Virus record (IMG/VR): IMGVR_UViG_3300025120_000017
Coordinates: 64,001 to 128,000 of that record
Strand: one strand, 5' to 3'
Source: a virus
DNA: 64,000 nucleotides
Under the pieces are notes generated by a model. That model saw only the letters and a list, made by a program, of their open reading frames with translations, was not told where the DNA came from and made no database searches. Position numbers and translations under genes: made by a program. Numbering within the stretch: position 1 is the stretch's first letter; every line of letters begins with the position of its first letter. Below are positions 1 to 45,309 of the stretch, one piece after another.

Positions 1-744
1 ATTTCCTTCATTAACTCCAGACTCTTCAGACATATTCATATATCTATAAAGTTTATTATATAATGCTCTAAGATCTTTTGTTAAAGTGCGAATTTTTTTG
101 CTATCATCTTTCATGATCATACTGTAAATATGTTCACCATCTGCATCATCTTTAATTAACGCTCTAAGATCGGCAAAATCCTTAGCAGCCTGAGCAGCAT
201 TTTCAACAACTAATGATTCTTTGATCTTATGCTTTCTCATAAAATCTCTCGCCATATCAATTGCATTTCTTAAATCAGTAACATCTAGTTCTGCCCAGGT
301 TATATTACCTTGTAAAAGTACTTCAGATTCATCATCCCACTTTGCAGTAGTTCTCATATCACCTTGATCATAAATTAATTCTTCAAGATCTCCAATTTCC
401 TCAACATAATCATTATTTGATTCATTAATATTTGTGGCATTAATTACTCTTTTACCAAGTTTTGATAATTTATAATGAGTTTCGCCATTTTTCTCAAAAG
501 TTACTAAATATCTGGAATTCTTTTTAATCCACTGAGGACTAGTTTTTCTACCGCTCTCTTCATTAGCAGATTTAATGTATTCCATTAAGTCAGTTTTACA
601 ACAAGATCCTTGCTCAGATACAAATCCAAGAATTTTTTGTCTAACTGGAGCATTTGCACCAACTACTGTTGATGCATACTTTCCATATTTTCTCTTAACT
701 TGAATAGTTCTTCTTTCGTTTAAAAAGCTTTTATAACTCTTCAT
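1..744 (-). CDS. Partial (runs off the left edge) modular internal-head-like protein with capsid-targeting-like leader; first module winged-HTH-like
   Basis: Not in the ORF track; translated by hand: ATG at 744, MKSYKSFLNERRTIQ..., open for 248 codons to position 1. Linkers NINE|S, IKESLVVE|N, ESGVNE|G. Module 1 (VRQKILGFVSEQG...YLVTFEKNGETHYKLSKLGKRVI) resembles a wHTH. Confidence 0.75.
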   Translation of the reverse strand, partial: MKSYKSFLNERRTIQVKRKYGKYASTVVGANAPVRQKILGFVSEQGSCCKTDLMEYIKSANEESGRKTSPQWIKKNSRYLVTFEKNGETHYKLSKLGKRVINATNINESNNDYVEEIGDLEELIYDQGDMRTTAKWDDESEVLLQGNITWAELDVTDLRNAIDMARDFMRKHKIKESLVVENAAQAAKDFADLRALIKDDADGEHIYSMIMKDDSKKIRTLTKDLRALYNKLYRYMNMSEESGVNEGN

Positions 745-769
745 TTTAAATGTTTTTATTTTTGATGAT

Positions 770-1774
770 TTAAAATACAATCATAGATTCATCTCCATTA
801 ACTTCAACGAATTTTATATTATTTGATTTAAGTATTTTAATTACATCTTTCATTGTCATCATTCCAGATATGGATTCATCTCCGATAACAAAAGACATTT
901 TCTTAGATAATTTTTTTAATTGAGCCGCAGTAGATTCATCAAAATCATCAAATTCAATTTCAGATAATTCCCCAGCATAATCAGCAAGCTCTGATGGTAC
1001 ATCAGATTCATTAACCTTCCCAAAAGATTCTTCAACTCTATCAGAAACAACAATTCCTAAGTATTTCTCAATTTCTTCTTTTGAGAATCCTTTCTTAGCC
1101 AATTCATCGATTATCTTTGTTAAAGTACTTCCTACAATAGAGTCAAGTTTTCTTTTCATAAGCTTAACATCGCCTGCTTCACCAATAAACTCTTCAGCAT
1201 TTTCTTTATCTTCAGCATCAACATCCTCAACATCGTATTCTTCATCACCGACTTTAAATGTTTTTTCGTCATTTGCAATTGCCTTAGCTCTAGCAGCACT
1301 GAATGCATTTCCTTCTTTAACAGATTCAAATTGATGTCCTACAATTTTAAGACCTGCTACGCCTGGAAAAAATTCCCCTTGATCTGTTTGTATTCTACCG
1401 CTTGATGCTGAATGACGAGGTTCAGAAAAACCTTTAACTACAATAGCATCACCTCTAAAGTCTTTAGTCTTATAAGGTAATTTAACAACTTTTCCGGTTT
1501 TTTCATCTACTAACTTAGCTGATTCATTAACTGATTCGTTAGCAAATCTTGCCACGCCTTTATCAAATGCCTTATGATATTTTTTAGGAATATGGTCAGA
1601 TTTTAGGTAACTAATAAGTTCCTCTGCGCTATCCCACATTTGGTTAGCTGCCTCATCTGCATCGCTTGTATATTGACCAGCTGCATTAATGATTTCCATT
1701 GCAATATCCTGGTCAAGTCCATACATTTCATTAACAGACTTGCTTTTATTTATAAACCTTTTATAACTTTTCAT
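770..1774 (-). CDS. Modular internal-head/prohead-core-like protein
   Basis: Leader MKSYKRFINKSKSVNE; internal linkers ESVNE|S, ESVKE|G, FIGE|A, KVNE|S; acidic, lysine-rich composition typical of T4-type core/internal proteins. Confidence 0.65.
   Translation of the reverse strand: MKSYKRFINKSKSVNEMYGLDQDIAMEIINAAGQYTSDADEAANQMWDSAEELISYLKSDHIPKKYHKAFDKGVARFANESVNESAKLVDEKTGKVVKLPYKTKDFRGDAIVVKGFSEPRHSASSGRIQTDQGEFFPGVAGLKIVGHQFESVKEGNAFSAARAKAIANDEKTFKVGDEEYDVEDVDAEDKENAEEFIGEAGDVKLMKRKLDSIVGSTLTKIIDELAKKGFSKEEIEKYLGIVVSDRVEESFGKVNESDVPSELADYAGELSEIEFDDFDESTAAQLKKLSKKMSFVIGDESISGMMTMKDVIKILKSNNIKFVEVNGDESMIVF
1001..1180. repeat. 180-nt coding direct repeat, copy 1 (module EAGDVKLMKRKLDSIVGSTL...RVEESFxKVNESD)
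   Basis: Near-identical in DNA and protein to 2568..2747. Confidence 0.95.
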
Positions 1775-1786
1775 TTTAAATCTTTT

Positions 1787-2515
1787 TTATTTTATTTTCA
1801 ATAAGTCATTTATAAACTTTTCAACATCCTTTCCTTTACTTAAAATAACATCAGCAGTTTCATCATCTTCACTAAATGGTATAGGATATTCTATTGCAAT
1901 TCCATTACCTGCTTTGGATATATTAGCGTCATATCTATCAATATCTTGGATTGATGTGTTTTTAACTTTACCTGTCTTATTAAAATTTGATAGTACTGAA
2001 ATTAAAGTACTAATCTCATCTTCATCAAAAACCATTTCAGATTCACCATTAAAATCTATAGCAACACCCTGAGATGCTTTAGATACCGATACATCAGATT
2101 CATTAACTGATTCATTCATTGGAATATCAACACCTAGTAATATTACGCTAACAGTTGGAGTACCACCTACGCTAAATCCTGGCAAAAATGCTTTAGCTTT
2201 TTTTCCTTTTTTAGATATTGATTCGCCTGCCTTCTTTATAATATTTCTAATCTTTGCAGTTTTTGGATCATCTTCATCAGTAAATGATGAATATCCATTA
2301 TCGTCATCATATACTTTAATATCTTTAAGAGCTTTAGCAGTAAAATCAAACTTTAAAACAGGAAATTCCTTTCTTCCATCCATGTTAAGTTCAAGTTTAG
2401 GATTTTGTAATAAACCTGTCTTCATCATGACATCTTGTGCATATTTAATCTGTGCATCTGTAAAATTATCATTAACATGCTTTGCTTCATTAACAAAACT
2501 TTTATAACTTTTCAT
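1787..2515 (-). CDS. Two-module internal-head-like protein
   Basis: Leader MKSYKSFVNE|AK; central linker PMNESVNE|SDV separates two unrelated domains. Confidence 0.65.
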   Translation of the reverse strand: MKSYKSFVNEAKHVNDNFTDAQIKYAQDVMMKTGLLQNPKLELNMDGRKEFPVLKFDFTAKALKDIKVYDDDNGYSSFTDEDDPKTAKIRNIIKKAGESISKKGKKAKAFLPGFSVGGTPTVSVILLGVDIPMNESVNESDVSVSKASQGVAIDFNGESEMVFDEDEISTLISVLSNFNKTGKVKNTSIQDIDRYDANISKAGNGIAIEYPIPFSEDDETADVILSKGKDVEKFINDLLKIK

Positions 2516-2528
2516 CTTAAACTATTTT

Positions 2529-3143
2529 TTATTTTTCAGTGGATGCCATATTTCCTTCACCGTCTGCATCTGATTCATTAACCTTTTTAAAAGATTCTTC
2601 AACTCTATCAGAAACAACAATCTCCATATACTTTTCGATTTCCTCTTTTGAAAAACCTTTCTTAGCTAATTCATCGATAATCTTCTTTAGTGTAGATCCT
2701 ACAATAGAGTCAAGTTTTCTTTTCATAAGCTTAACATCTCCTGCTTCAGTAATTCCTGATAATGCTTCAGTAACTTTTGCAGTTATTTCTTGGTCATCAT
2801 TAACAACTTCATCACCATCTCCGGATTTTGTTGGTTTACCTTTTGCTACTTCTTTATCTTCTATTTCATCAGATGATTCATCACCATCACCCATATCTTT
2901 AGAAACCTCTTTGCCAGCACCGTTTCCATTTTCTTGGTCTTCGTTATCTGCTTTTACCATTTCTGAAACTTCTCCGTCCCATTCTGATTCTATTTCGTTA
3001 AAGAATTTTTTCTTTTCTCCAGTAGATAAGTCAGCAGGTGAATCCGCGCCGTACTCAGCTAATTTTTCTTTAAAGAAATCTGCATATTCTTTTTGCTTTT
3101 TAGACTTCTCTTCTTCTAGTATAATTTGTCCTAAACTTCTCAT
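2529..3143 (-). CDS. Acidic prohead-core-like protein carrying the shared 60-aa module
   Basis: MRSLGQIILE|E start, D/E-rich middle, ITE|AGDVKL... module shared with 770..1774. Confidence 0.6.
   Translation of the reverse strand: MRSLGQIILEEEKSKKQKEYADFFKEKLAEYGADSPADLSTGEKKKFFNEIESEWDGEVSEMVKADNEDQENGNGAGKEVSKDMGDGDESSDEIEDKEVAKGKPTKSGDGDEVVNDDQEITAKVTEALSGITEAGDVKLMKRKLDSIVGSTLKKIIDELAKKGFSKEEIEKYMEIVVSDRVEESFKKVNESDADGEGNMASTEK
2568..2747. repeat. 180-nt coding direct repeat, copy 2
   Basis: Near-identical to 1001..1180. Confidence 0.95.
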
Positions 3144-3161
3144 AGTGAGTTTTATTTTTTG

Positions 3162-3179: not shown

Positions 3180-3842
3180 TTATTTAATTCCATTCACAGG
3201 CATTCTAACCATTTCCTTATTAAACCGCTTTTCTTTATTTTCTTTAAATCCAAATCTTTTATAAAATTCTTTAAGTCTAGATGTTGAGCTTCCAAATTTA
3301 TCTGTTGTATCAAGAGTTAATATAAAACTTTGGTTATCTGCAAATTTAATAAGATCTTCCATGATTCTTGATCCTATTCCACTATTTTTATGAGTTTTAT
3401 TTACTTCTAAATAATTTAGCATAATAACATCTTCATTAGTTGTTATTGGATAATAGGATAATTTAATATCTTCAACAGGAAACTTCTTTAGTATGCTATC
3501 AGCAAATTCTTTAACCATTTTGGTTTTAGTTTTAATATCTTCTTTAAGGCCATCATATTTTTTATAACTTAATAGCCAACCTCTTAGCACTTTAGTAATT
3601 GAATCTGCGTGAGTTCCTTCAGGTTTTTCTATTGTTGTAATATTAACAGTAATATCACCATCTTGTAAACTTACTACTCCCGCATCTTGAAGAATTTTAT
3701 ATTCTTTTTCTCCATATGTATTTTTAATAAAATATGCAACTTGTCCTAAAAGATCATATTGACTGTTTTCAACCATTACATTAGGTATAGTACCAATAGG
3801 ATATAATTTAGATTGATTAATAAATTTTTTTAACCTCTTCAT
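3180..3842 (-). CDS. GNAT-family acetyltransferase domain protein with capsid-targeting-like leader
   Basis: LEVNKTHKNSGIGSRIM (acetyl-CoA-binding motif A) and LKEFYKRFGF (motif B) at the C-terminus; N-terminus MKRLKKFINQ. Confidence 0.75.
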   Translation of the reverse strand: MKRLKKFINQSKLYPIGTIPNVMVENSQYDLLGQVAYFIKNTYGEKEYKILQDAGVVSLQDGDITVNITTIEKPEGTHADSITKVLRGWLLSYKKYDGLKEDIKTKTKMVKEFADSILKKFPVEDIKLSYYPITTNEDVIMLNYLEVNKTHKNSGIGSRIMEDLIKFADNQSFILTLDTTDKFGSSTSRLKEFYKRFGFKENKEKRFNKEMVRMPVNGIK

Positions 3843-5362
3843 AAATATATTTCTTTTATTTTATATGGAAACTTTTGTTCTTTATATATTTTCTGTCTTG
3901 CCTTGCCATGAAAGTATACTAAATTCTTTTTAGTACTTCTTAAAATGTCAGTATAATCAAAAACATATAATATAGCCTTATCATCGTGAAGTCTTAATCC
4001 TCTACCTAAACTTTGTCTTATAATTATATCACTTTTAAAACTTTCAGTTAAGTGTATGTAATGTATATTTTTTACATTAATTCCAGTAGAAAAAGTACCA
4101 TAAGATGCTACAAGAACTTTATCTTTCCCATGTTCCATAAGATGTTTGATTTCATTCCTAGCGTTTTTATCAACCCCGCCATCAATGTAATAAACTTTCT
4201 TATTAGTATTTTCATTTATATATTTATAAAGGTCCTTGCCATATACTGTTCTATGAAATAGTACTAATTCATTGCCTTTACATTTATCAACAACTCTTTT
4301 TATAACTTCAATACGTTGTTTATTTTGTATGATAACATCTTGCTCCATTCTAAGAAGCTTTGATTTGTCATCTATTGTTGCTGTGATTTCATCAAAAGAT
4401 TCTTTTATTTTATCTGAGTGATGTAATTCTAAAACATTTATAAAAAGCTTAGATATATGACCTTTATCTTGAAGTTCTTTTGCTTTTATTTCAGTAATAA
4501 GTGGACCTAGATATGCTTGTAATGTTAGCCAATCAAGAGTTCCTTTTTTAGGTACTGTACCTGTTAGACCAAATCTTCTATCTGCACTATGACACCTTCC
4601 TAAAATATCTTGAATTGATTTTGCTTTTACTTTATGAGTTTCATCACAGCATATAGTATCAAATGCCGATAAGAAACTATCAGAAAATTTAACTAGACTT
4701 TGAAATGTTCCTACGAAAATATTTTGGTCATATGTATATTCTTTTGATTCTCCTCCATGAATTTGCTTTATTTCTAATAGTGTTTTATTATTAGGTTTTA
4801 AAAAGCTATTATATTCATGAAAGTCTTCAAATGCTTGTATTACTAAATTGATTGTAGGTACAATCATAAGACATTTTTTAGATAATCCTTTATCTAATAA
4901 ATATGAAAATGCTATATAAATGATTAAAGATTTTCCTGCACTGGTAGCAAGTTCACTAATAGATAATTTATATTTAAGTATTTTATAGGCAGAGTTAATT
5001 TGATAATCTCTAGGAGCAAACGGTTCACCTTTTTTATCAGTAGCATCTTCAAATTTGCTATTTACCCATTCACTAAATTCGTTAAATTCCAAATCATAAA
5101 AAAGATTTCTTAAACCGTCTATTTCAATATCATAACGATATTTTTTAGCAACTTCTCTAAGCTCCATCCATAATCCTGATGGCACATACTTATCTTGATG
5201 AAAATATGATATTATACCATTCCATTTTGCCTTAACTGGGTTAGGTAAAAAATTATAGTATTCTAGTTTTTTTGTTAATGATTTTTGGAGTTGCCCTTTT
5301 TCAGTCCTATCAGCATCTACTAAAGTAAGAATCCTATTATTATGTGATAGTGTGAATTTCAT
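3839..5362 (-). CDS. uvsW: UvsW-like SF2 DNA helicase
   Basis: PRDYQ, ATSAGKS (Walker A), DETH, GLTGT, QSLGRGLR; about 500 aa, as T4 UvsW. Confidence 0.9.
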   Translation of the reverse strand: MKFTLSHNNRILTLVDADRTEKGQLQKSLTKKLEYYNFLPNPVKAKWNGIISYFHQDKYVPSGLWMELREVAKKYRYDIEIDGLRNLFYDLEFNEFSEWVNSKFEDATDKKGEPFAPRDYQINSAYKILKYKLSISELATSAGKSLIIYIAFSYLLDKGLSKKCLMIVPTINLVIQAFEDFHEYNSFLKPNNKTLLEIKQIHGGESKEYTYDQNIFVGTFQSLVKFSDSFLSAFDTICCDETHKVKAKSIQDILGRCHSADRRFGLTGTVPKKGTLDWLTLQAYLGPLITEIKAKELQDKGHISKLFINVLELHHSDKIKESFDEITATIDDKSKLLRMEQDVIIQNKQRIEVIKRVVDKCKGNELVLFHRTVYGKDLYKYINENTNKKVYYIDGGVDKNARNEIKHLMEHGKDKVLVASYGTFSTGINVKNIHYIHLTESFKSDIIIRQSLGRGLRLHDDKAILYVFDYTDILRSTKKNLVYFHGKARQKIYKEQKFPYKIKEIYL

Positions 5363-5385
5363 TAATGTGTATTTTTATAATATAT

Positions 5386-5850
5386 TTAATAACCGCCACT
5401 TAGGAACCTAGTTGACTCTATTAAGTATTTTATTGCAAATCCAATCTTATCAATAGTTTCAATAGTTCTTCTATAATAATCTATTTGGTTTTCTAATACA
5501 GTTTTAAAATTTGTCTTAGGTTCAAGATCAGCATCAATATGTTTATGTATTTCACTATCATTTAATCTAACATTATATTCTGTCTTATACTTAAAATACA
5601 TATGCTTTCGTTCTTCACCAATTCTTTCGCTATGTTTGCGAATTTTTGAGCGTAGGTTAGAAATTTTATCACTTAACCTATGTCTTTGTGAAGATGTATG
5701 TACTTGTAACTCAGCAACTTCTTTAATATCAGTTAGTTTACTTATAATATTTTCATGGATAAATTTACCAATTTCATCTCTTTCAGATTCAAACTTTAAT
5801 TCAAGTTCTTGAACCTTTTTATAATATGCATCTTTTTGTTCTTTGTTCAT
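5386..5850 (-). CDS. UvsY-like recombination mediator
   Basis: 154-aa helical protein next to uvsW; C-terminal IDKIGFAIKYLIESTRFLSG resembles UvsY C-termini. Confidence 0.6.
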   Translation of the reverse strand: MNKEQKDAYYKKVQELELKFESERDEIGKFIHENIISKLTDIKEVAELQVHTSSQRHRLSDKISNLRSKIRKHSERIGEERKHMYFKYKTEYNVRLNDSEIHKHIDADLEPKTNFKTVLENQIDYYRRTIETIDKIGFAIKYLIESTRFLSGGY

Positions 5851-6074
5851 TAAAATAGAGAATTGTCTGCTGACTTATCAGCGTTTGTTATTGTTTTATC
5901 TATAGGATCAGATGTAGGAATTTCATCTACATCATTAATGATTAATTTAGATGTTGCTTTTTTTCTATATGCTCTTATAAACCATTTTCCTAAAGGTAAT
6001 TTTAAATCGCCAGTAGGTGCTTTAGTTGCCTTTTTAAATAATATACCTATTTCTTTATACATAATACATATCAT
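5850..6074 (-). CDS. Small hypothetical protein (start may be MYKEIG at 6062)
   Basis: Fills the gap between primase and UvsY-like genes with abutting stop/start. Confidence 0.5.
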   Translation of the reverse strand: MICIMYKEIGILFKKATKAPTGDLKLPLGKWFIRAYRKKATSKLIINDVDEIPTSDPIDKTITNADKSADNSLF

Positions 6075-7137
6075 ATTTTGTTTTACTAAAATATGTAGAC
6101 AATTTATTTAATGATTCTGAGTATTCACGATTATCATAAACATATTTTATCACTTCGTTCAAATCTTTAAGTCTTTTGTTTTTATATTTAAAATCTTTAA
6201 AGAATTTTGACCACATAAAGCATTGCTTATTTATCTTTATTTTATCTATAGCATTAGTTTTACCTGTCTTATCGTTATCGTAAAAATATCTAATATTATC
6301 CATATCATCAAAAAATTCTTTTAATTTAGTTGCACCTGCGGTTGCTACGCTATTTGGTAAAAAGAATGAATCTAACGGACCTTCAAAAACTGTGAGAGGT
6401 ATTTCAAGGTTTACATTAAAGATATTGAATATTAAAGATAAGTTATCGCAAGTACCTTTAAACACAATATCTTTAAAATCTATATCATATCGCATTTCTT
6501 CATTTAACTTTGAAAAGTCTTTTGTCAGATATTTAGGACCACCGTCAAGATTTTTTATTTGTAACCCAACTACTTTATCTTCTCCTATTTTATTTAGGAT
6601 CCATACTTCTCTCTTCTTCCATTTATTTACTCTAAATAATAGTTGATTCTTTACACTTTGTAATAATCTATCTTTTATAAATTGTTCTGACCAATCATAG
6701 TATGCATAAGATTTTAATCCATAAAAATCTTTAATTCTTTTAGTGAGTATAGAATTTTCATGCAAGAACTTAAAATATTCACTACTGTTTTGAAGAGTGA
6801 TATGTTGTCTATTCTTACTATTATTTTTTAAGATCTCTGCAATATTTTTAATATAATCAGCATTTCCTATTTTTTTACCAAATGCTTTAAAGAATCTAAA
6901 TGCTCCCCAATATTTTGCTACGCATTCGCCATTAAAGCAATGGAATTTCATTGTATCAAAATAAAAATATCCACGTTTTTTTGTTCTATCTTTAACAGAG
7001 TCTCCGCATACTGGACAGGCCATTAATAATTCAGATCCTTTATTTCTTAGCTTTCTTTTATGAACATCTGTAAATGTATCATTAAGAATGTCTTGTATGG
7101 TTTCTGTTAAATGATTTTTTAAATTATCTTTACACAT
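6055..7137 (-). CDS. DNA primase (T4 gp61-like)
   Basis: Zn ribbon CPVCGDS...FHCFNGEC; TOPRIM VFEGPLDS, YDNDKTG, KDLNE. Confidence 0.9.
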   Translation of the reverse strand: MCKDNLKNHLTETIQDILNDTFTDVHKRKLRNKGSELLMACPVCGDSVKDRTKKRGYFYFDTMKFHCFNGECVAKYWGAFRFFKAFGKKIGNADYIKNIAEILKNNSKNRQHITLQNSSEYFKFLHENSILTKRIKDFYGLKSYAYYDWSEQFIKDRLLQSVKNQLLFRVNKWKKREVWILNKIGEDKVVGLQIKNLDGGPKYLTKDFSKLNEEMRYDIDFKDIVFKGTCDNLSLIFNIFNVNLEIPLTVFEGPLDSFFLPNSVATAGATKLKEFFDDMDNIRYFYDNDKTGKTNAIDKIKINKQCFMWSKFFKDFKYKNKRLKDLNEVIKYVYDNREYSESLNKLSTYFSKTKYDMYYV

Positions 7138-7147
7138 ATAATAGTAT

Positions 7148-7177
7148 AAAAAAAAGGGTGGGACTTATCCCACCCTT
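7148..7177 (-). terminator. Intrinsic terminator after the SSB gene
   Basis: 10-bp stem AAGGGTGGGA/TCCCACCCTT, 4-nt loop, U-tract on the minus strand. Confidence 0.85.
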
Positions 7178-7204
7178 ATATAGTTACATTAATAGATTTA
7201 TCAA

Positions 7205-8233
7205 TTAAAGGTCTAAATCAAGATCATCTAGAAAATTATTAATGTTTTCGTCAGATTCTATTTCAACTGTTTTTTCTTTAGCAATAGGTTCAGATGTAGG
7301 TCTTGCATTTTTTAAAGCAGAACCAGACTCAACTTCATCTATCACATCATCAATAGATTCTGTAGATGCAGATGGTGTTGACTTATCAGCTTCTTTATTA
7401 ACAACTCCACTTATTTGCATTTCTCGTTTAGGTGCTGCAGTTGTCCCGAAAGATATTCCAGTTTTTTCAGTAATAATACTAAGCAATAGCGACTTTCGTT
7501 CTGCATCCATAGGAACATAAATGTATGGCTTCATAAGTTCTTCGCCTGTTTTAATAAATTCTAAAAATTCAGGTTTAGATTCAGTAGTAAATGATTCTCC
7601 TTTAAATTGTAATTCGCCTTTTTCTTGCCATTCACAACCATCATAATTCCAATACCCTCCTTTAAGACCAACGTTTACTTCTAAACTTCTTCCTATAAGT
7701 GGATTGAAGATATCTTCAGCTTTTTTACCCATCTTAATAGCTTTTGCATCAAGATTTACTTTACCATCAATTACTTTATGAACTTGTATAGGGCATTTCC
7801 ATACCATCAGCTTACCTTCATTCTCTGGTGTTACTAAATCTTTTTCTACATAAACTAAATAAAAGAAACTAGATTTTGGCTTAATTTCATCTGCAAGATC
7901 TTCAGATCTCTGATTTGTTTTTCCTTCTCTTTTTAATTTAAAGAATGCTCCCATAGCTTCGCATTTTTCGCCAATTGAGAACGGAGAGTCAAAATATCCA
8001 CCTTCATCAGCAGAATTCTTTAAATAGAATGTCTTTTTCTCAACGAAGTTTCTTTTAGGATTAAATCCGTCAGGATTAGCCAACCAATAAACAGGTCTTA
8101 CCACAGCAGAATATACTTTATCTTTTGCTTGGTTTGGATCTGGTTTAAATAAGTTAGTTGAATTTGAACTTTGCGACTGAGCAGGAGCTTCGAAGTCGTC
8201 CATGTTTACATTGAAAATGTCTAAATTTTCCAT
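7205..8233 (-). CDS. Single-stranded DNA-binding protein (T4 gp32-like)
   Basis: LVYVEKDLVTPENEGKLMVW, DIFNPLIGRSL, GGYWNYD and acidic tail (FLDDLDLDL). Confidence 0.85.
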   Translation of the reverse strand: MENLDIFNVNMDDFEAPAQSQSSNSTNLFKPDPNQAKDKVYSAVVRPVYWLANPDGFNPKRNFVEKKTFYLKNSADEGGYFDSPFSIGEKCEAMGAFFKLKREGKTNQRSEDLADEIKPKSSFFYLVYVEKDLVTPENEGKLMVWKCPIQVHKVIDGKVNLDAKAIKMGKKAEDIFNPLIGRSLEVNVGLKGGYWNYDGCEWQEKGELQFKGESFTTESKPEFLEFIKTGEELMKPYIYVPMDAERKSLLLSIITEKTGISFGTTAAPKREMQISGVVNKEADKSTPSASTESIDDVIDEVESGSALKNARPTSEPIAKEKTVEIESDENINNFLDDLDLDL

Positions 8234-8407
8234 AATTTACCGTTTTTACTTTTGTTAAATTTTAATTACAATAGTTAAATTCTTTTAAGCGCTTAATTGT
8301 TTTAACCTTTGTTACCTTTTTTTATAAAAAAGAGTTTTTTATTCTTTTCTATAGTATATTTAATCAACTAGGTTATGTTTATTTGCTTAATTTTATAACA
8401 TTTTTCA

Positions 8408-11506: not shown

Positions 11507-11751
11507 TCGCTATCAGCTTGATTATTATTTATCTCATCTTCTGCTATTTTCTTAATAAGCATTTCAAACTTAACAGATGTTGTTCCACTATAAATATTTT
11601 CCATTTCATCCATTTTTCTAGCAGCATCTAAAAAAGCTTCTAAATTAACTCCATTTCCACCTTTTTTATTTATAATTTGCATTTGCTTTAAAACAAGCTT
11701 TTCCATATCATTGCTTGTGTTCCTATGATTCATTTCTTGTATAGTTTTCAT
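11497..11751 (-). CDS. Hypothetical protein
   Basis: Start overlaps the upstream TGA stop (TGATG). Confidence 0.55.
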   Translation of the reverse strand: MKTIQEMNHRNTSNDMEKLVLKQMQIINKKGGNGVNLEAFLDAARKMDEMENIYSGTTSVKFEMLIKKIAEDEINNNQADSDWG

Positions 11752-37638: not shown

Positions 37639-37851
37639 TTATTTGTTTTCTTTTGTATAATTATATAAATTTTCCAAGGTTTTAATAGAATTATATGAAT
37701 GCATATAGTATCTTTCTAATCTATCTAAAAAACCTGTCATCATACCATTACCATATCGAACATAAGGCGACATAGTTTTTTCAAAAACGTCAAGATCCTC
37801 TTTAGGAACTCCGTTTATTGCTTGCTTTATTTGAGATTTTTGAGTTATCAT
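37639..37851 (-). CDS. Small hypothetical baseplate-operon protein
   Basis: TAATG coupling to the gp6-like gene. Confidence 0.55.
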   Translation of the reverse strand: MITQKSQIKQAINGVPKEDLDVFEKTMSPYVRYGNGMMTGFLDRLERYYMHSYNSIKTLENLYNYTKENK

Positions 37852-39671
37852 TATGCTTTATATTTTTTAAATCTTGGCACGCTTTCTTTAAAAACAACAT
37901 TAACTGCTGATAGGTTTACAGGGTCAATACCATCTTTATATTCAATATTATTTCTATCATTAAATCCACCTCTTAATATAGGAAGTTCTTTATTTCCTAT
38001 AACAATATCTCCAAAGTCATCAATACCTATTTTTGGGTCAGTTCCAGTTGATAAGATAATCTTTTCAGTTTTAGTAACATCAGTTGATGTATTAATATCT
38101 AATGAATTTTGTGTATTGTTTCTCAATTGGTCTAATAAAATATCAGACGTTTGTTTATTATTATAAGAAACTTCTTTAAAGTAATAACCATTTCGTATTG
38201 CTTCTTCATTATCCCCAGATATAAATGTAATGCTTACACTATCAATTCCATCAATAGATTCAATGGTCTTAATTAAATCCGATTTAGGTATTTTATCTCT
38301 CCGCTCAAGATTAATAAAATATTCTCCTGCTTTATTAATGATTTCCTCTTCAATAGTTTCTTCTGATGTAATATCATCAAAAACTCGTAAATAAACATTC
38401 ATTGCATATTTTTTTACAATTGGGTCTATAATTTTCATTTCTGCTGAAATAAGTTGAGATCCGCTTTTATTGATTGCATTATACACAGCTTCTTTTGTCT
38501 GTGCATCAATATAGAAATTTTCTATGCTTGTACTAAAGTAATCTGAATTGCTTGATACCTTCTTTGTAATGTCTGGCATTAAGAAAACATATACAACATT
38601 ATCATCATCTAAATAATCATCACCATAAGTGTTAAATGCATAAATAAAAGAAAATTGATTATAACGTCTTAAAAAATGTATGTAATTATCAGGATTTGCA
38701 AGAACTAAAGATCTGCTGTTTTTATTCAGTAAGTATTTTGTTAAATCAGTGCTTTCACCATCAGATCCTAGAGTAATTTTTTTAGTTACTGTAATATCAA
38801 AAATTTCATTAAGATCCACTACTTGCCCAGTTCCTAAGGTAACTTCATCATCAAATTCAAAAACTATTTCATTTTGATTTATTCCTAGGTTTCCTGCAGT
38901 TCCTGCTGTTTTAACATAATTAACTTTAATAAGTTGGCCTACATCAGGAATAGTACCATAATCTTCATTACCAAAATAAATATCGACTTGGCCATTTATA
39001 CCAGTTTTTATAATAACGCCTTTATCATTCTTATTCATATCATAAATAGATTCAAAGTTCTTATACTCTTCGTCATTTACAAATATTTTTACATTATCAT
39101 TTTCAATTATTTCAGTTCTATTGTCAATAGTAAATGACTGTAGTGGAGTTCCATCTCCTTGAAAACTTTCATCTGCTAATTCACCTTGAATTATATTAAA
39201 GTAAACAAACTCTTGACTAGTTTTAGGGATTAATATATTATCAGATGGTAATTTTATTAAGTATGCTAAGCTATTGTTTTGGCACATTAGCTTTGTAAAA
39301 TTATTTATTTTAATATTAGTGCTATTTATTAAGTTAGATGCACCTGGTTTTATCTTAAGACTTAATTCACCTGTTGCACTAGTTCCTCTAGATGGATTAT
39401 GGCCAGTCAATCGAGCAAGCCCTCTTATACTCTTTTGTTTAAATGCAGTTTCTGTATTTCTTTCATTAAGAGCATCTTCTAAATAAAAATATTGTAATTT
39501 ATTAAGTTCTTCTATTACATGAAGTATTTGGCCGTAAGGACTGGTCTCAGAAAAATTCTGATCTCTTTTAGCGTACTCTTTAATTAGATAATTTTCTACT
39601 TGAGTCTTTAATGCCTGATCTTGAATTAACAATTTATCAAGCACCAATTTTATTTTATTTTTATCAGTCAT
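37851..39671 (-). CDS. Baseplate wedge subunit (T4 gp6-like)
   Basis: TAFKQKSIRGLARLTGHNP, IYFGNEDYGTIP, YVKTAGTAGN, GSDGES. Confidence 0.85.
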   Translation of the reverse strand: MTDKNKIKLVLDKLLIQDQALKTQVENYLIKEYAKRDQNFSETSPYGQILHVIEELNKLQYFYLEDALNERNTETAFKQKSIRGLARLTGHNPSRGTSATGELSLKIKPGASNLINSTNIKINNFTKLMCQNNSLAYLIKLPSDNILIPKTSQEFVYFNIIQGELADESFQGDGTPLQSFTIDNRTEIIENDNVKIFVNDEEYKNFESIYDMNKNDKGVIIKTGINGQVDIYFGNEDYGTIPDVGQLIKVNYVKTAGTAGNLGINQNEIVFEFDDEVTLGTGQVVDLNEIFDITVTKKITLGSDGESTDLTKYLLNKNSRSLVLANPDNYIHFLRRYNQFSFIYAFNTYGDDYLDDDNVVYVFLMPDITKKVSSNSDYFSTSIENFYIDAQTKEAVYNAINKSGSQLISAEMKIIDPIVKKYAMNVYLRVFDDITSEETIEEEIINKAGEYFINLERRDKIPKSDLIKTIESIDGIDSVSITFISGDNEEAIRNGYYFKEVSYNNKQTSDILLDQLRNNTQNSLDINTSTDVTKTEKIILSTGTDPKIGIDDFGDIVIGNKELPILRGGFNDRNNIEYKDGIDPVNLSAVNVVFKESVPRFKKYKA

Positions 39672-39685
39672 TAATAATACTTTTT

Positions 39686-40051
39686 TTAATTAAGAACAAT
39701 TCTTACTAAATTATCATCCTCAACCGTGACATCAACCACAGCAGCTTCTTCATTTTCTATTTGATAAAAAGTAACAGAAACTTTCCAAGAAAAGTCACTA
39801 GCATATGATGAATACTCTTGAATTTGTTGGTTTATTCTAGATTTCATGTCACTTTCATTAGTACCTAACGTATGTAAATACATATCTAATGATGCGCCAA
39901 ACTTAGGACTACCAATAACAGCAGTCATAGGGCTTGTTAAGATTATTTCTATTTCTTGTAGAAATATTTCTAAGATATCATTTACTTCTATAGTGTTTGG
40001 GCTATAGTTCTTTGAATATGACTTTCTTAAGTAAATATCTGTTGCTCCCAC
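39686..40051 (-). CDS. Baseplate gp25-like protein
   Basis: ILTS...PKFGASL..YL motif; 121 aa; GTG start; precedes gp6-like gene. Confidence 0.75.
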   Translation of the reverse strand: MGATDIYLRKSYSKNYSPNTIEVNDILEIFLQEIEIILTSPMTAVIGSPKFGASLDMYLHTLGTNESDMKSRINQQIQEYSSYASDFSWKVSVTFYQIENEEAAVVDVTVEDDNLVRIVLN

Positions 40052-40062
40052 GGCTTACTTTA

Positions 40063-40076
40063 TTTTTATATTTAAT
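40063..40076 (-). promoter_or_regulatory. Candidate late promoter ATTAAATATAAAAA
   Basis: Exact copy of the 14-mer. Confidence 0.65.
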
Positions 40077-40094
40077 AACCGAGGTAATGGTAAA

Positions 40095-40475
40095 TCATGT
40101 AGTGTATGCAGAGATATATGGAATATCTTCTCTATAATGTGTTGATAATCTAGAATAACCATCAAGAACTTCATCATTAAAAATTACAATAGGATTATCC
40201 AATTCATCATCATGTGGAATTTCATCCCACTCTTCAGAATCTTCTCCATATCTATCTTCACCGCTTTTTATATATTCCTTAACATCTTTATCTTTTCTAA
40301 TTACATCTTTAACTTTAACTTTTTTTAATGTAAATGTCTTATTAGATTTAAGAATTTTTTCTATAAAAAAGTCAGGAACATCGCTACTATCTGGTGTGAT
40401 GTAAGTAATGTAATCAGCAATTTCTTGCGCTGATTTACTTTTAGCCTCATTTAAAAATTTCTTATAACTTTTCAT
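40095..40475 (-). CDS. ParB/Srx-like domain protein with capsid-targeting-like leader
   Basis: MKSYKKFLNE|AK; NPIVIFNDEVLDGYSRL matches the ParB-N PIxV...DGxxR pattern. Confidence 0.6.
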   Translation of the reverse strand: MKSYKKFLNEAKSKSAQEIADYITYITPDSSDVPDFFIEKILKSNKTFTLKKVKVKDVIRKDKDVKEYIKSGEDRYGEDSEEWDEIPHDDELDNPIVIFNDEVLDGYSRLSTHYREDIPYISAYTT

Positions 40476-41242
40476 TATTGTCCGTTTGTTGTAAAGAAAA
40501 AACTAGGTGAGCTTAATCCTTTAATTTCTTCTTCTACTTTTTCAATCATAGTTACACCATTATCAAACCATTTAGAATAATCAATTTGTACATTTCCAGG
40601 AAGTTCCATTTGAAATGCTCCTAATATGTTTCCTAATTGTTTATAGGATTCTCCTAAAACATAATTATAAAATAGGTCTAGTCCATATAATGCTTCATAA
40701 GGAACTTTAATCATTACATCAAGTATAAGATCTGGGCAATTCTTAACGTCACCTTTTATAAATAGCCTATTATTTAATCGGTTGTATTCATATGTAAGTG
40801 GGTGTTTAGTAATATGATACATTAGATCATCCCAAGATGCATAAACCACATATGCAAGAACTGCATCACTATACATACCATCTTCAACAGCACCACCGCC
40901 ACCTAAGCCATAATTACCATAAACAAATTTATTTAAACTAAAGTCACTTGTTAAATCTGATGTTTTTGTAAACTGATTATTTTTAGTAAGACCATTAACT
41001 GAATATACGCATGATGGTAATGTAACTCCTCTATTCATTTTAAACAATGAATCTTTCATATACTGCTCGGATGGAATTAAAATATAAACATTATCAACAG
41101 CATCTTCATAATTTCTATAAAACCATTCAGCTGTATATTTTGATATTCTATCTATTTCAGTTAATGGAATTTTAAAAGGTATATTACATGATGCTGTTAG
41201 TGCATTTATAATATCTTGATTAAATTCTTCCTTACTTCTCAT
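40475..41242 (-). CDS. Neck protein (T4 gp13-like)
   Basis: SKEEFNQDIINAL start; YKQLGNILGAFQMELPGNVQID and C-terminal ...FFF. Confidence 0.75.
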   Translation of the reverse strand: MRSKEEFNQDIINALTASCNIPFKIPLTEIDRISKYTAEWFYRNYEDAVDNVYILIPSEQYMKDSLFKMNRGVTLPSCVYSVNGLTKNNQFTKTSDLTSDFSLNKFVYGNYGLGGGGAVEDGMYSDAVLAYVVYASWDDLMYHITKHPLTYEYNRLNNRLFIKGDVKNCPDLILDVMIKVPYEALYGLDLFYNYVLGESYKQLGNILGAFQMELPGNVQIDYSKWFDNGVTMIEKVEEEIKGLSSPSFFFTTNGQ

Positions 41243-41247
41243 ATTTA

Positions 41248-42552
41248 TTAATTATTTTGTGCTTCTTCTGCGTCTATTACCTCTACAGAATCATCTATCT
41301 CAGTATCTACATATTTACCTTCTCTAAAAATAGTGTTACCTTTAATTTGCATTCGGTCTAATGTAATAAATTTTCCATTTATATATCCATTTATGACTTT
41401 ACCGCTTTCATGGTGACCATCCTTAAGTCTAGTCTTCTTTAAATCGCATGAAATTGTATCAGTGTTTGTTAAGTCACATTTACTTGTTTTACTATCTTGT
41501 AATATTGCATTATCTATCACGCATTGTATAAACCTACAGTTATGAAAAATTACCCTATGTGAATCTATCACAGTATCCTTAAAACTAATATCAACAAACT
41601 CAAGCAATGATTCGTCTGAGTCATAATTTATTTTTCCTGCCATGCCATAAGGAATGTTTTCCATCTGTTGCATTAGTGGAAAAAATACTTGTATTATTTT
41701 ATGGAACTGTGATTTAACTGCTTCAGAATTATCATTACCATCAACAGATAACTTAAGTTTTTTAAATATGTTCTTAAAATTAAAATAATCTTTACTTGCT
41801 AAAAAAAGTTTATGCTTTTTATCTACTATAGATTTAAGAATCTTATTATCTTCTTTATCATATGGTTTATTATATGATAAAATTAATGAATCAATAAAAT
41901 AGTCCATTAACTCAATAGTTTCATCAGATCTAATTGCATATTTAGGTCCTCCTAAATATCTAAATTCTAAATAACCTTTTGATAATTTAGTAAAGTTTAT
42001 TCCATAGTACTTATTACTTGGAAATACATAATTTGTTTTATTAAATGTTAAATTATCAATGGCATAACTGCCATGTCTAGGGAAAATAGATTTAATGGTT
42101 TTGGCATATATATTATTTTTTCTATCTGGAAAATATTTATAAACCAAATCCTCATCAAAATCAATAATATATTTAAGAATGTCAATGTTTTGAATATACC
42201 TACCTTCTATATTAATGTTAATATGTATACCACATCTTTCATTAAGTGATATTTTTTTATCTTCTCTTATAAACTTAAGCATGTTTAGTAAGACAATTCT
42301 TGCTAATGGATATGATATAGGCCCAGTAACAACCTCAACTAGGCTTACGCCTCCTGAAAAATCTGGCTCCATTTTCCAATGGTCATTTGTTGGTATAAAG
42401 TCAGAATGATGTTCTTTTTCTAATTTAACATCAACTTTAAATATTTTTTTGATTTTTTTCTTAATTTCTCCTAAGTTATATTTAGGATCTCTTAAAAATT
42501 CAAACTCAAACCCTATTTGTGACTTAGTTTGTTTAATTTCGTTAGGAGTCAT
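41248..42552 (-). CDS. Amidoligase (COOH-NH2 ligase) family protein with C-terminal beta-solenoid-like repeats
   Basis: IGFEFEF, EPDFS, VEVVTGP, CGIHIN, KYYGINF, YLEFRY. Confidence 0.8.
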   Translation of the reverse strand: MTPNEIKQTKSQIGFEFEFLRDPKYNLGEIKKKIKKIFKVDVKLEKEHHSDFIPTNDHWKMEPDFSGGVSLVEVVTGPISYPLARIVLLNMLKFIREDKKISLNERCGIHININIEGRYIQNIDILKYIIDFDEDLVYKYFPDRKNNIYAKTIKSIFPRHGSYAIDNLTFNKTNYVFPSNKYYGINFTKLSKGYLEFRYLGGPKYAIRSDETIELMDYFIDSLILSYNKPYDKEDNKILKSIVDKKHKLFLASKDYFNFKNIFKKLKLSVDGNDNSEAVKSQFHKIIQVFFPLMQQMENIPYGMAGKINYDSDESLLEFVDISFKDTVIDSHRVIFHNCRFIQCVIDNAILQDSKTSKCDLTNTDTISCDLKKTRLKDGHHESGKVINGYINGKFITLDRMQIKGNTIFREGKYVDTEIDDSVEVIDAEEAQNN

Positions 42553-42580
42553 CTATTACGCATATCTTTTAATATTTAAT

Positions 42581-42609
42581 AAAAAAGACGCAGTATAATT
42601 ACTGCGTCT
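42581..42609 (-). terminator. Intrinsic terminator after the S1-like gene
   Basis: Stem AGACGCAGTA/TACTGCGTCT with U-tract on the minus strand. Confidence 0.85.
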
Positions 42610-42645
42610 CTTTGAACATTTTTAAAACATGTCTTTTATATAAAA

Positions 42646-43770
42646 TTAAACAAATGATAAATCATATTTTCCATTATTAATGTTTATGATTTTGCATTCT
42701 ACTTTATCATTACGTTCTACCTCAACATTTTTCATTTTTGATATATGTACTAGACCACTTGTATTTTTATCAAATTTAACAAATGCACCGTATGAAGTAA
42801 GTTTAGTTACTCTACCTTTTACTATTTCGTTTTTCTTATATTTAACTTCCTTTAATGCTGTTAAATCCACTTCAAATCTTGATAGGATAATTCTCTTAGG
42901 ATTAATTATTTCTTTTAAGAAAAATTCAATCTCTACACCAGGCTTAACCTGACTATTGTCAAATAATTCCTTAAGGCCTTCATCAAATTCATCTTTATGA
43001 ATTAACCCTGTGAGAACTTCATTAAACTCAACAAATATACCAAAATGCGTAGTATCAGTTACTTTTCCAGTATACTTATCACCTACCACAAGATCTTGTA
43101 ATTTTATAGGAATTAAAGTTTTTAAATATTCTCGATGAGATACGATAAGAGTGTTTTTATACTTAGAATAACTATTATTATTTTTAACAGTCATTACTTT
43201 AATGGTTTCTCCAACAAGATCATTAAAATCAACTAATCTGTTTATTCCACCTAAGCTACCTGGCATAAATACATCAAGACCTAGAATATCAAGGTCATAT
43301 CCATTATTTGATAGCCTTAATACCTTAGCATCATATACTTTCTTAGAATCCCAATCTGTCATATCATCATATAGCTCTTTCCTGATCTTTCCAGTAATAG
43401 ATGCTTTTAAATACTCAGAACTTTCTTGATCTTGAGTGATAATTACTTCAATTTCCTGACCAATAGAAAAGTCGCTTGGATTTAGTTTATCCTTATCAAC
43501 AGACACGTATGCAAGTTCTCTATGCCCAACATCTAAAGATATTTCACCCTCAGTAATAGAAACAATTCTTCCTAGAACTACTTCGCCAGTGCATAATGAA
43601 TATTTTTTAACAGGAGTTACTCCATTAAAATAGTCTTCATATGATTTTGCTAAATCTTTTGCATAAGGCTCTGTTGATAGAATTTTTAAGCCTGATTTTG
43701 TTTGAAATGGTTGTTCAGCCGTGAACACGGAAATGTTTTTAGGATCCCCATAAACTTCTGTAGAGTTCAT
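42646..43770 (-). CDS. rpsA: Ribosomal protein S1 homologue (four S1 domains)
   Basis: GEVVLGRIVSI...; VFMPGS...LIVSHR (D2-like); GKVTDTTHFGIFVEF..GLIH; GRVTKLTSYGAFVKF..GLVHISKM. Confidence 0.8.
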   Translation of the reverse strand: MNSTEVYGDPKNISVFTAEQPFQTKSGLKILSTEPYAKDLAKSYEDYFNGVTPVKKYSLCTGEVVLGRIVSITEGEISLDVGHRELAYVSVDKDKLNPSDFSIGQEIEVIITQDQESSEYLKASITGKIRKELYDDMTDWDSKKVYDAKVLRLSNNGYDLDILGLDVFMPGSLGGINRLVDFNDLVGETIKVMTVKNNNSYSKYKNTLIVSHREYLKTLIPIKLQDLVVGDKYTGKVTDTTHFGIFVEFNEVLTGLIHKDEFDEGLKELFDNSQVKPGVEIEFFLKEIINPKRIILSRFEVDLTALKEVKYKKNEIVKGRVTKLTSYGAFVKFDKNTSGLVHISKMKNVEVERNDKVECKIININNGKYDLSFV

Positions 43771-43794
43771 ATTTTTTATTTTTAAGTGTATAAT

Positions 43795-44322
43795 TTATTT
43801 AATAGTAAATCCGATTACTGGTACTGAGATTTTAGGAGGTGGAGCTCCTGCCACTGCAAGACCATTATATAAAAATGATATAGTTTTTGCATGTCCGCTA
43901 AAGACATTAAATAATGCGCTTGTTATATTATCATAATCAGCGCTTTCTTCAAATAGAGGCAATGTAGGTGGTATTGGAGGTGTTGATATTGTGACTACTC
44001 CTGAATCAACTAAAGACATTCCAATTGTAGGAATAGCAGGTAGTTTAAGACTACCTGTTGCCCATGCAGCAATAAGAGATGCTTCTATTAAAGTAAATTG
44101 CATGTATGATCCTGGAATAGATTCAGATAATTTAATTTGTGCTACTATTGCACTTTTGATGAGTGTATAATTAATTCCACTCCATCTGTTCATATTTGAA
44201 TCTTTACCATTGCTGACAGCATCTTTATAATTATCAACAATAAGACCAGCAACATCTACTATGCTGCCAGAATTATTTAAGTTATCTTTAAATGATTGTT
44301 CTAAATCAGATTTTAGGCCCAC
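43795..44322 (-). CDS. Hypothetical protein, possibly baseplate spike-associated
   Basis: GTG start; Pro/Gly-rich C-terminus; two genes downstream of gp5-like gene. Confidence 0.45.
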   Translation of the reverse strand: MGLKSDLEQSFKDNLNNSGSIVDVAGLIVDNYKDAVSNGKDSNMNRWSGINYTLIKSAIVAQIKLSESIPGSYMQFTLIEASLIAAWATGSLKLPAIPTIGMSLVDSGVVTISTPPIPPTLPLFEESADYDNITSALFNVFSGHAKTISFLYNGLAVAGAPPPKISVPVIGFTIK

Positions 44323-44325
44323 CGT

Positions 44326-45309
44326 TTATTTAAGTTTAGTTAATAAATCAGACCATAAATCAACTCTTGAAATATCAGGAAAGTTATATCCTGATTTTTT
44401 TCCTCTCATATCTTCAACACCGACTTCTTTTTCAAGATGCTTTATAACCATTTTAGTAATATCTTTATCGTTAAAACGTATAATAGGCTTTTCCATTATA
44501 GGTGAATAAGGACCTCCATACATATTATATTGACCTTCTTGAATAGCAAATATTTCTTTACCAAATTTTGTTTTACCTTTTACTTTAAAAGTGTTGCTGC
44601 TCCACTCTATATAGCCTTCTAATAGATCCAACTCAGCAGCAATTTGACTAGCTGCATCCTCTTCACTACTGTTATATTCTGCCCAAAGGGATCTATCAAT
44701 ATCATACTCTACGTTAATCTCTGCAGGAATCATTATTTTATCTCTTAAAACTCCTTCATTAACTGATTCCATTTTACCAGATGATAGGTCTTTAAGATCT
44801 TTATTAGCATTATCTATGTTTTTACTTTCTCTTTTGAATATTCCAATAAATTTCTTAACAACACTTTTTAAACCTTGTATCATTTTAGAAAGAATATTTT
44901 CATCGATACTTTCAGATTCATTTGTTCCTATTTCAAAAGAATGTCCTATATTGGTTATCTTTTTAGAAGCTGCTAAAGATTCTTCTAATATGTTTCTTGT
45001 TGCTGAATTAACTTTACCTAAAGCCATTTCAAACGCATTCTTATACGAAGCTGAACTTCTCTCATGTGCAAATCTTTTAATCTTTATCAAATAATCATCA
45101 GTTTCTGCTAGCTTTTCACCAGTTTCCTGCATTGAATCCAATAAAGGTGTTATTTGCTTACCATATTCACCAAATTGTTTTTTAGCTTCTTTAAGCTTTG
45201 CTGATAGTTGATTAATCTCTTCTTGTAAAAGATAAAAATCATCCATTGATGCAACAATTGAAGGGTCTTCTATTTTAGATTCTTTTATAAAATTTCGTAA
45301 ACTTTTCAT
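44326..45309 (-). CDS. Modular internal-head-like protein
   Basis: Leader MKSLRNFIKE|SK; linkers NESESIDE|N and MESVNE|G; own candidate late promoter. Confidence 0.65.
   Translation of the reverse strand: MKSLRNFIKESKIEDPSIVASMDDFYLLQEEINQLSAKLKEAKKQFGEYGKQITPLLDSMQETGEKLAETDDYLIKIKRFAHERSSASYKNAFEMALGKVNSATRNILEESLAASKKITNIGHSFEIGTNESESIDENILSKMIQGLKSVVKKFIGIFKRESKNIDNANKDLKDLSSGKMESVNEGVLRDKIMIPAEINVEYDIDRSLWAEYNSSEEDAASQIAAELDLLEGYIEWSSNTFKVKGKTKFGKEIFAIQEGQYNMYGGPYSPIMEKPIIRFNDKDITKMVIKHLEKEVGVEDMRGKKSGYNFPDISRVDLWSDLLTKLK

Follow-up and report, generated by a model that had tools for sequence, protein, structure and literature searches.

Why should viral genes whose products are otherwise unrelated begin with almost the same ten residues? 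The question is raised by the window analysed here, which comprises bases 64,001 to 128,000 (64,000 nucleotides) of one 171,834-bp IMG/VR viral contig, IMGVR_UViG_3300025120_000017. The original prediction described at least nine genes of this window as sharing an N-terminal leader and proposed that their products are addressed to the capsid and cut there by a protease, in the manner of the internal proteins (IP) of phage T4. All nine leaders are present at the proposed minus-strand starts, namely at position 744 (gene A, MKSYKSFLNE), 1774 (gene B, MKSYKRFINKSKSVNE), 2515 (gene C, MKSYKSFVNE), 3143 (gene D, MRSLGQIILE), 3842 (gene E, MKRLKKFINQ), 10702 (gene F, MKRLDKFFE), 12329 (gene G, MKSLNEFLNE), 40475 (gene H, MKSYKKFLNE) and 45309 (gene I, MKSLRNFIKE). 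Positions are those of the window unless the contig is named. The contig has a G+C content of 29.8% and a CheckV completeness estimate of 67%, and its minus strand carries nearly all of its genes. Altogether 208 genes were called, and the census of leaders covers the contig as a whole.

The strict pattern MK[SNGD][LY]xxF[LIV][NK]E is found at 13 N-termini of the contig compared to ~1e-4 expected from amino-acid composition, and there are zero occurrences internal to proteins in 54,008 residues. These counts speak against a leader that does not rise above background. A looser pattern matches 29 of the 208 called genes; ~26 of them were kept as plausible members (~12%, about one gene in eight), most of which fall outside the window, and the initial count of at least nine is thus raised considerably. 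Leaders were scored with a position matrix derived from the 13 strict members and hence circular for those members; genes A, C, G, H and I reach 27-34 bits, gene B 18.9 and gene E 14.8 bits. The leader of gene D (2.6 bits) still exceeds the 99th percentile (-1.0) of the scores of 915 internal Met 10-mers (maximum 10.8), and that of gene F, which is one residue shorter, scores -3.7 bits. On sequence grounds the six genes A, B, C, G, H and I belong firmly to the family and E takes an intermediate place; D, though weak in its leader, qualifies through its module content, and F is doubtful. The leader of E ends in Q rather than E.

Behind the leader the proteins are as dissimilar as had been claimed. 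An all-against-all BLAST of the contig proteins links only B and D among the leader-gene bodies, by a common module of 66 residues with 88% identity (989-1186, B residues 197-262; 2556-2753, D residues 131-196; both on the minus strand). It starts at I-[GT]-E/AGD and ends just past VNE/SD (the slash marks a predicted cut site). The nine genes were also considered as simple paralogues, which was rejected as the bodies are dissimilar save for this one module. Within the leaders the codons vary synonymously (AAA/AAG, AGT/AGC/TCA, TTA/CTT/CTA, AAT/AAC, GAA/GAG). Because synonymous sites differ, the leader is conserved at the protein level; a DNA-level cassette, be it a recombination or a translation signal, was rejected for the same reason.

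The T4 capsid targeting sequence (CTS) is MKTYQEFIAE (PMC8442874). Mutagenesis of T4 IPIII assigned targeting mainly to residues 4 and 7 (Y4, F7) and processing to residues 8 and 10; a tag with Asp at position 10 is no longer cut but still targets, and the T4 protease gp21 cleaves after L/I-x-E (PMC9026906). The contig keeps these positions. Of 18 contig leaders, 17 have L or Y at position 4, 16 have F at position 7, 16 have L, I or V at position 8 and 16 have E at position 10. The leaders departing from E10 are those of gene E (Q10) and gene B (K10, with VNE at residues 14-16). Based on the Asp-10 result in T4, the gene E protein may be targeted but uncut. Six residues of the contig leader MKSYKEFLNE are the same as in the T4 tag, and three more are conservative replacements. 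Taken together these comparisons support the ten-residue leader M-K-S-(Y/L)-x-x-F-(L/I/V)-N-E as a close analogue of the T4 CTS.

A head machinery of the T4 type is encoded on the same contig outside the window. It comprises a major capsid protein of the gp23 family (contig 37642-39327; Pfam Gp23 PF07068, E = 1e-36), a protease-scaffold fusion of 544 residues with an N-terminal Peptidase_S77 (T4 gp21) domain and coiled coil in the remainder (contig 39345-40979) and a gp20-type portal (contig 41040-42686; PF07230, E = 9e-59). The same head module holds a gp2-like DNA end protector, a gp15-like protein and a weak gp55-like late sigma match (contig 43784-44614), and two leader genes adjoin the portal. 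The fusion protein is assigned to Peptidase S77 by profile PF03420, which scores 44.7-47.1 bits with a cut-off of 27, and by an alignment with T4 gp21 (PDB 5jbl) spanning GELDHP and ISSRAAG, the catalytic His and Ser segments. In the phage database, the nearest relatives of the capsid protein are an uncultured 462-kb phage (48% identity), Sphingomonas phage PAU (33%) and Tenacibaculum phage pT24 (30%); Lak megaphages as well as Chryseobacterium and Flavobacterium phages are also near. As judged from these relatives the host is probably a member of the Bacteroidota, and the fact that no Shine-Dalgarno sequence is visible upstream of the genes examined fits such a host. A megablast of 12 kb of the window against the phage database gave no match.

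We favour a T4-type reading of the leader because the peptide matches the CTS at functionally mapped positions and co-occurs with T4-type head genes. As for CTS-led proteins of T4, we find a short shared N-terminal propeptide, the determinants at residues 4 and 7, a predicted site at 8-10 and the cognate gp23-, gp20- and gp21-type genes in the genome, so that the likeness to T4 stressed in the original prediction stands. It is very improbable that the N-terminus is unrelated to the capsid and instead serves translation initiation or the mRNA of an AT-rich phage lacking Shine-Dalgarno sites, directs proteins elsewhere or times their activation by the protease in the cytoplasm. The lack of visible Shine-Dalgarno sequences and the position of many tagged genes in early-type regions would agree with such a role. 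However, the peptide is kept while synonymous codons vary, the majority of the genes in the genome do without it, and it matches the T4 CTS at the mapped positions with T4-type head genes alongside. Moreover the motif recurs inside the proteins as a linker, beyond the reach of any translation-start signal.

These linkers were proposed to separate the blocks of the larger proteins, which the counts bear out. The motif ES.?V[NK]E has 9 occurrences in the leader proteins (5,378 residues) and a single one in all others (46,134 residues; ~77-fold enrichment per residue), and VNE followed by S, G, A, M or D is found 14 times in leader proteins and 7 times in the others. Gene B (770-1774, minus strand like all window genes described here) encodes a 334-residue polyprotein with predicted sites after residues 16, 84 (ESVNE/S), 154 (ESVKE/G), 199 (IGE/A) and 256 (KVNE/S). 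Gene A (1-744) runs off the left edge of the window; its protein has 327 residues in full, the 3' end lying 239 bases before the window, with predicted sites after residues 10, 108 (NINE/S), 176 (IKE/S) and 246 (GVNE/G). Gene C (1787-2515; 242 residues, leader MKSYKSFVNE/A) has an internal site after residue 139 (ESVNE/S), gene D (2529-3143; 204 residues, weaker leader MRSLGQIILE/E, MKSLGQIILE in homologue P0002) one after residue 190 (KVNE/S) and gene I (44326-45309; 327 residues, MKSLRNFIKE/S) one after residue 185 (ESVNE/G). Gene G (11751-12329; 192 residues, MKSLNEFLNE/A) has a possible NILE/A site after residue 89. Gene H (40095-40475; 126 residues, MKSYKKFLNE/A) consists of a single acidic module, and gene F (10196-10702; 168 residues, MKRLDKFFE/N) is the gene of uncertain membership.

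The expected substrates of the protease bear the [LIV]-N-E motif too, as SSSLNE-51 in the capsid protein and as NTVNE-161 between protease and scaffold; the C-terminal region of the protease-scaffold protein additionally has FLTE-487 and MIKE-508. In a weak alignment the T4 maturation site (after residue 65) falls 7 residues downstream of SSSLNE-51, and the mature T4 capsid chain in the PDB is 65 residues shorter than its precursor.

The structure of B was predicted with AlphaFold2 (69 homologues, mean predicted local distance difference test score, pLDDT, of 68). Segments with pLDDT <50 are residues 74-84, 151-154, 195-207, 251-258, 298-305 and 324-334, ~16% of the chain. All four predicted internal sites (after 84, 154, 199 and 256) lie in low-confidence gaps between folded blocks, that is between predicted domains and not inside them. 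When the PDB was searched with this model by Foldseek, nothing matched at E <= 0.001, and the beta module shows only weak hints of Tudor/SH3-like folds. This beta-rich module (KLPYKTKDFRGD...SSGRIQTD) is also seen inside leaderless proteins of 909-973 residues starting with MAIDQETFNTRL; these are encoded on IMG/VR contigs L020, L023 and L025, which have 38-39% G+C and represent a different kind of phage contig.

Homologues of B from a collection of 5.8 billion proteins each cover 10-49% of it at 50-88% identity and vary in protein length. A total of 253 internal homology boundaries were compared with the five predicted sites (the leader end after residue 16 and the four internal ones); 47% are no more than 5 residues away from a site, compared to 16% upon random placement (p ~0.002, a value to be read with the caveat that the homologue matches are related and not independent). 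The module strings of the homologues are joined by ESVVNE/A, ESMNE/A, ESINE/G, ESVIIE/G and similar sequences. The module GNAF..AARAKAI.. of B is found in tandem in homologues and also at the C-terminus of a relative's protease-scaffold protein (P0115, P0033), which places it in the prohead core protein of at least one relative. Gene I behaves likewise: among its three homologues one module is inserted after ESVNE/, the N-terminal module of I is found second or last behind other leaders, always directly after [LIV]-x-E, and modules are inserted, dropped or re-ordered at VNE/, IKE/ and VTE/. These comparisons support a clustering of module exchange at the linkers.

Alternatively, the tag could target and be removed while the internal ES-V-N-E sequences stay uncut as flexible joints or recombination junctions of multi-domain proteins. 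The linker is indeed stricter (V-N-E preceded by E-S) than the T4 rule L/I-x-E demands, and its DNA is nearly constant, GAA TCx GTT AAT GAA, which could guide recombination. Yet the linkers end in [LIV]-[NK]-E plus a small residue just as the leader, the capsid site and the protease-scaffold junction do, and they are exposed inter-domain segments, where a co-packaged Glu-specific protease is expected to cut. We thus regard uncut linkers as improbable.

Our favoured reading is that a T4-type capsid address is reused on a large, dispersed and fast-changing set of genes, with protease sites serving both for release of the tag and as joints between modules; we would put its probability at about 0.62. 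By analogy to T4 the tagged proteins would bind the scaffolding core during prohead assembly, the core here presumably being the coiled-coil C-terminal part of the protease-scaffold fusion (contig 39345-40979), and the gp23-like shell would then enclose the core-bound proteins. The S77 (gp21-type) protease would cut after Glu in (L/I/V)-x-E and remove the tag, and in multi-module proteins the same protease would also cut the E-S-(x)-V-(N/K)-E linkers. A single address could in this way load several small, independently folded modules. The modules would remain beside the DNA in the head and would probably be brought into the host upon infection like T4 IPI-III and Alt, and the linkers would double as junctions for swaps of modules between genes and phages. 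T4 serves as the precedent for each of scaffold binding, cleavage, retention in the head, ejection and the putative effector roles.

Several observations weigh against this reading. The general motif [LIV]-x-E is barely enriched (21.6 per 1000 residues in leader proteins, 16.8 in others), so that it is the narrower [LIV]-[NK]-E-small motif that carries the case. The linker DNA is written in the preferred codons of the genome, and selection at the protein level is not separated from selection at the DNA level. In the AlphaFold model of gene I the ESVNE-185 site falls in a coil that separates a helical half from an alpha/beta domain, but this model is of low confidence (mean pLDDT 48, built from 4 sequences). 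Many leader genes are located among small early-type genes, and only ~40% have a structural-type upstream motif. Finally, several modules are very acidic (isoelectric point, pI, 4.3-4.6) and one of the modules is also present on a scaffold protein; such modules could equally be pieces of core or scaffold that are degraded and expelled.

The last point leads to the main rival, which is kept alive by the acidic modules and by the module fused to scaffold. Here the tag would target the prohead, but most tagged proteins would be auxiliary core or scaffold proteins that are chopped, expelled and serve assembly or size control, comparable to T4 gp67, gp68 and gp22 or to the long propeptides of phage SPN3US. 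T4 core proteins are cut at multiple L/I-x-E sites and then cleared (PMC9026906), and the multiple cuts in SPN3US fall within removed propeptides (PMC10052503). Many modules of the leader proteins are strongly acidic, most lack an enzyme signature, the GNAF...AARAKAI module of B is found in tandem and at the C-terminus of a protease-scaffold protein (P0115, P0033), and two leader genes lie in the head module beside the portal. On the other hand the modules are predicted to fold independently and keep 50-88% identity while being shuffled, which is unexpected for disposable spacer peptides. Some domains are enzymes (GNAT, RimK-like ATP-grasp and, in a relative, cytidylyltransferase-like), and the 46 families found behind one tag in other contigs resemble the variable anti-defence internal proteins of T-even phages (PMC3012670). 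We therefore consider the core or scaffold explanation unlikely, and rank both uncut linkers and a capsid-independent signal below it.

With respect to cargo content the modules are mixed, some basic (pI 9-10, such as the first module of gene A with pI 10) and others very acidic. Gene E (3180-3842; 220 residues) has a C-terminal GNAT acetyltransferase domain, for which Pfam PF13508 and PF00583 score above their cut-offs and PHROG acetyltransferase families match; it also matches inside a PHROG profile of 3925 positions. Outside the window, the tagged gene at contig 8080-9069 encodes an R2K/RimK-like ATP-grasp enzyme, and further tagged genes match DUF7403, DUF3008 and DUF5824. One relative has a match to the cytidylyltransferase family (PF01467, a precomputed Pfam match) ahead of common modules. 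Pfam scans of ~20 leader proteins yielded GNAT, ATP-grasp and DUF domains only, with no peptidase and no signature domains of polyvalent proteins. Two domains only, the GNAT domain of E and the RimK-like ATP-grasp domain, thus point to possible enzymes acting on host proteins.

The timing of expression may be hinted at by sequences upstream of the genes. A motif like TAAATAT(A/T)AAAAG precedes several large structural genes and some leader genes, I among them, by ~25 nucleotides; within the window it recurs, at a fixed distance of 25-30 nucleotides, upstream of the starts at 24690, 30327, 30963, 42552, 45309 and 12984. It resembles the core of the T4 late promoter, TATAAATA. A second A-rich motif is common to other structural and leader genes. 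One or the other motif precedes 10 of 26 leader genes, compared to 14 of 46 structural genes and 20 of 136 others (leader compared to other genes, p = 0.01), the motifs having been defined post hoc after looking at the data. The occurrence of a structural-type motif at leader genes is therefore only suggestive with regard to timing. Gene I, which adjoins a gp5-like baseplate hub gene, has TAAATATAAAAAG 25 nucleotides upstream.

How does this system compare to those already described? T-even phages carry variable sets of CTS-led proteins, diverse internal proteins with only a CTS in common, and the CTS may be a general route for T4-like phages to load proteins (PMC3012670, PMC9026906). The variable internal proteins of T-even phages are anti-defence factors (PMC3012670). 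Like T4 IPI, IPII, IPIII and Alt, the proteins described here have a ten-residue tag in which positions 4 and 7 are hydrophobic or aromatic, position 8 is L or I and position 10 is E, and as in T4 unrelated bodies stand behind one tag in a genome with a gp21-type S77 protease, a scaffold, a gp23-type shell and a gp20-type portal. In contrast to the handful of tagged genes in T4, ~26 are present here, known from their sequence alone. Moreover, T4 internal proteins are cut once, whereas some proteins here are multi-modular with internal linkers of the cut-site type at which modules are shuffled. Judged by the capsid identities given above, the phage also belongs to a clade distant from T4.

The giant phages phiKZ, 201phi2-1 and SPN3US likewise have many head-internal proteins cut after Glu at a short motif by a gp21-related protease, with conserved N-termini among paralogues and some proteins cut at several sites (PMC5694885, PMC10052503). 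In these phages, however, propeptides exceed 100 residues and the extra cuts are located inside cleared propeptides (PMC5694885, PMC10052503), and all reported SPN3US cuts yield N-terminal propeptides (PMC10052503). The leaders described here have 10-16 residues, and the giant phages are without a short universal tag or strings of retained, shuffled modules. PHROG scans of the leader proteins revealed no families of inner-body or ejection proteins, and no homology to the giant-phage proteins was found.

Polyvalent proteins (Iyer et al. 2017, PMC5512222) also combine unrelated domains in one polypeptide, which is presumably delivered together with the DNA and split into functional units, and GNAT domains are known among them. 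They differ by carrying their own peptidase domain and a characteristic domain set (PMC5512222), and this combination of embedded peptidase and effector set is not seen in the leader proteins. Here an N-terminal address tag is present, and cutting would occur in trans by the prohead protease at a fixed linker. The Dar system of phage P1 (DarA, DarB, DdrB, Hdf) is similar in that head-loaded proteins are injected to protect incoming DNA. Loading in P1 reportedly depends on an order among the Dar proteins and not on linker sites and a short tag common to all. A paper on the P1 Dar system (PMC9024508) uses the term capsid targeting sequence. No homology to P1 Dar proteins was seen here.

Our literature searches found no paper pairing 'prohead protease' with 'polyprotein' and no description of the leader family in the clade of PAU, pT24 and Lak phages. 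Seemingly nowhere described is the combination of a short universal tag, linkers following the protease rule, shuffled strings of modules and a share of about one gene in eight. We would class the system as a variant of the T4 internal-protein system.

Similar tags also occur in other viral contigs. A DNA pattern for MKx[L/F]NEFLNE detects 58 loci in other IMG/VR contigs (L032-L089); these loci hold 84 tagged open reading frames, as many as nine of them on one 42-kb contig. The bodies behind this tag form 46 unrelated clusters, and the residue following it is G, A or S in 63%. The same pattern has only 8 matching stretches in 596 Gb of bacterial and archaeal genomes and is thus almost absent there. 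A Gp23-type capsid gene is present in 3 of 5 multi-tag contigs tested, all five being fragments that are 17-31% complete. Loci of related viral contigs hold gene arrays whose leaders end in F-(I/L)-N-E as well as polyproteins containing as many as five ES..E joints. A DNA pattern for MKSYKxF[LF]NE with AGY serine codons had no match in any other viral contig, and tblastn of B against 50,697 phage records gave none either. We tentatively suggest, at somewhat short of even odds, that many uncultured T4-like lineages share this address-plus-cut-site code of a 10-residue tag and ES-V-N-E joints, by which any small protein module could be added to the load of the capsid, with several modules per gene.

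Among cultured phages, Tenacibaculum phage pT24 (LC168164.1) has ~5-6 leader genes starting with MRDIRDYIKE, MRDITHYIKE, MKSLISYYNPLLESNINE, MKDISVYINE or MKSILEYVTE; they are located at 89992-90780, 92740-92994, 94834-95319, 173362-173994 and 179862-180485. The system thus appears to be present but small in pT24, which makes this phage a possible bench model for packaging and cleavage. To call the system of the contig expanded, as was done originally, is fair given ~26 leaders here, ~5-6 in pT24, and IPI-III, Alt plus core proteins in T4 (PMC9026906).

The surroundings of the leader genes are partly conserved. The array of E, D, C, B and A continues beyond the left edge of the window with three more genes, two of which bear leaders. 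Directly upstream of it a gp41-like helicase and a gp32-like single-strand DNA-binding protein are encoded (3839-8233, minus strand). Since three related contigs (L010, L015, L018) hold polyprotein arrays at the equivalent position, the region downstream of the helicase and gp32-like genes is, by sequence comparison, a conserved variable locus. Further along the window an amidoligase-like enzyme (PHROG 2443) adjoins a head-tail adaptor-like gene and leader gene H (41248-42552 and 40475-41242, minus strand).

The gene at 12331-12984, next to gene G, is leaderless. Its product of 217 residues has an ESVNE/S linker and a glycine-zipper-like (glycine-rich hydrophobic) C-terminus, and TAAATATAAAAAG is located 25 nucleotides upstream of the gene. 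It holds the stretch NVNGMGGVSLP..GSGDIP, a near copy of SVNGMGAVSLPE..GSGDVP in the N-arm of the capsid protein, followed by an acidic stretch. The protein may be cargo or a head protein that is addressed otherwise, by mimicking this N-arm.

Three adjacent minus-strand genes (30448-30963, 30997-32526 and 32553-34214) probably encode tail fibres. The two longer ones are identical in their first 30 residues (MGKIIVLKGTGSILADRESINKNFKHLHED) and diverge afterwards, and the product of the 171-residue gene has weak N-terminal similarity (32% identity) to the first of them. This pattern suggests swappable distal parts on a common N-terminal anchor.

If such a shared code exists, ~12% of the genes of this phage would encode pre-made proteins that are injected with the DNA. 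It would then be the cargo of the virion, and not the expression of early genes, that accounts for a large part of the takeover of the host and of the response to its defences. Metagenomic sequence alone could also suffice to predict which effectors are injected. Provided that tag and linkers work as in T4, they would mark the proteins that an uncultured phage carries and delivers first. Such proteins could include anti-restriction and host-modifying factors comparable to T4 IPI and Alt, amounting to dozens of new candidate counter-defence modules per genome. A natural format with one address and several cleavable modules would also be of practical interest for loading phage capsids with proteins. 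The CTS positions mapped in T4 are kept here despite only distant similarity of the capsid proteins, which bears on how internal proteins and the scaffolding core recognise each other.

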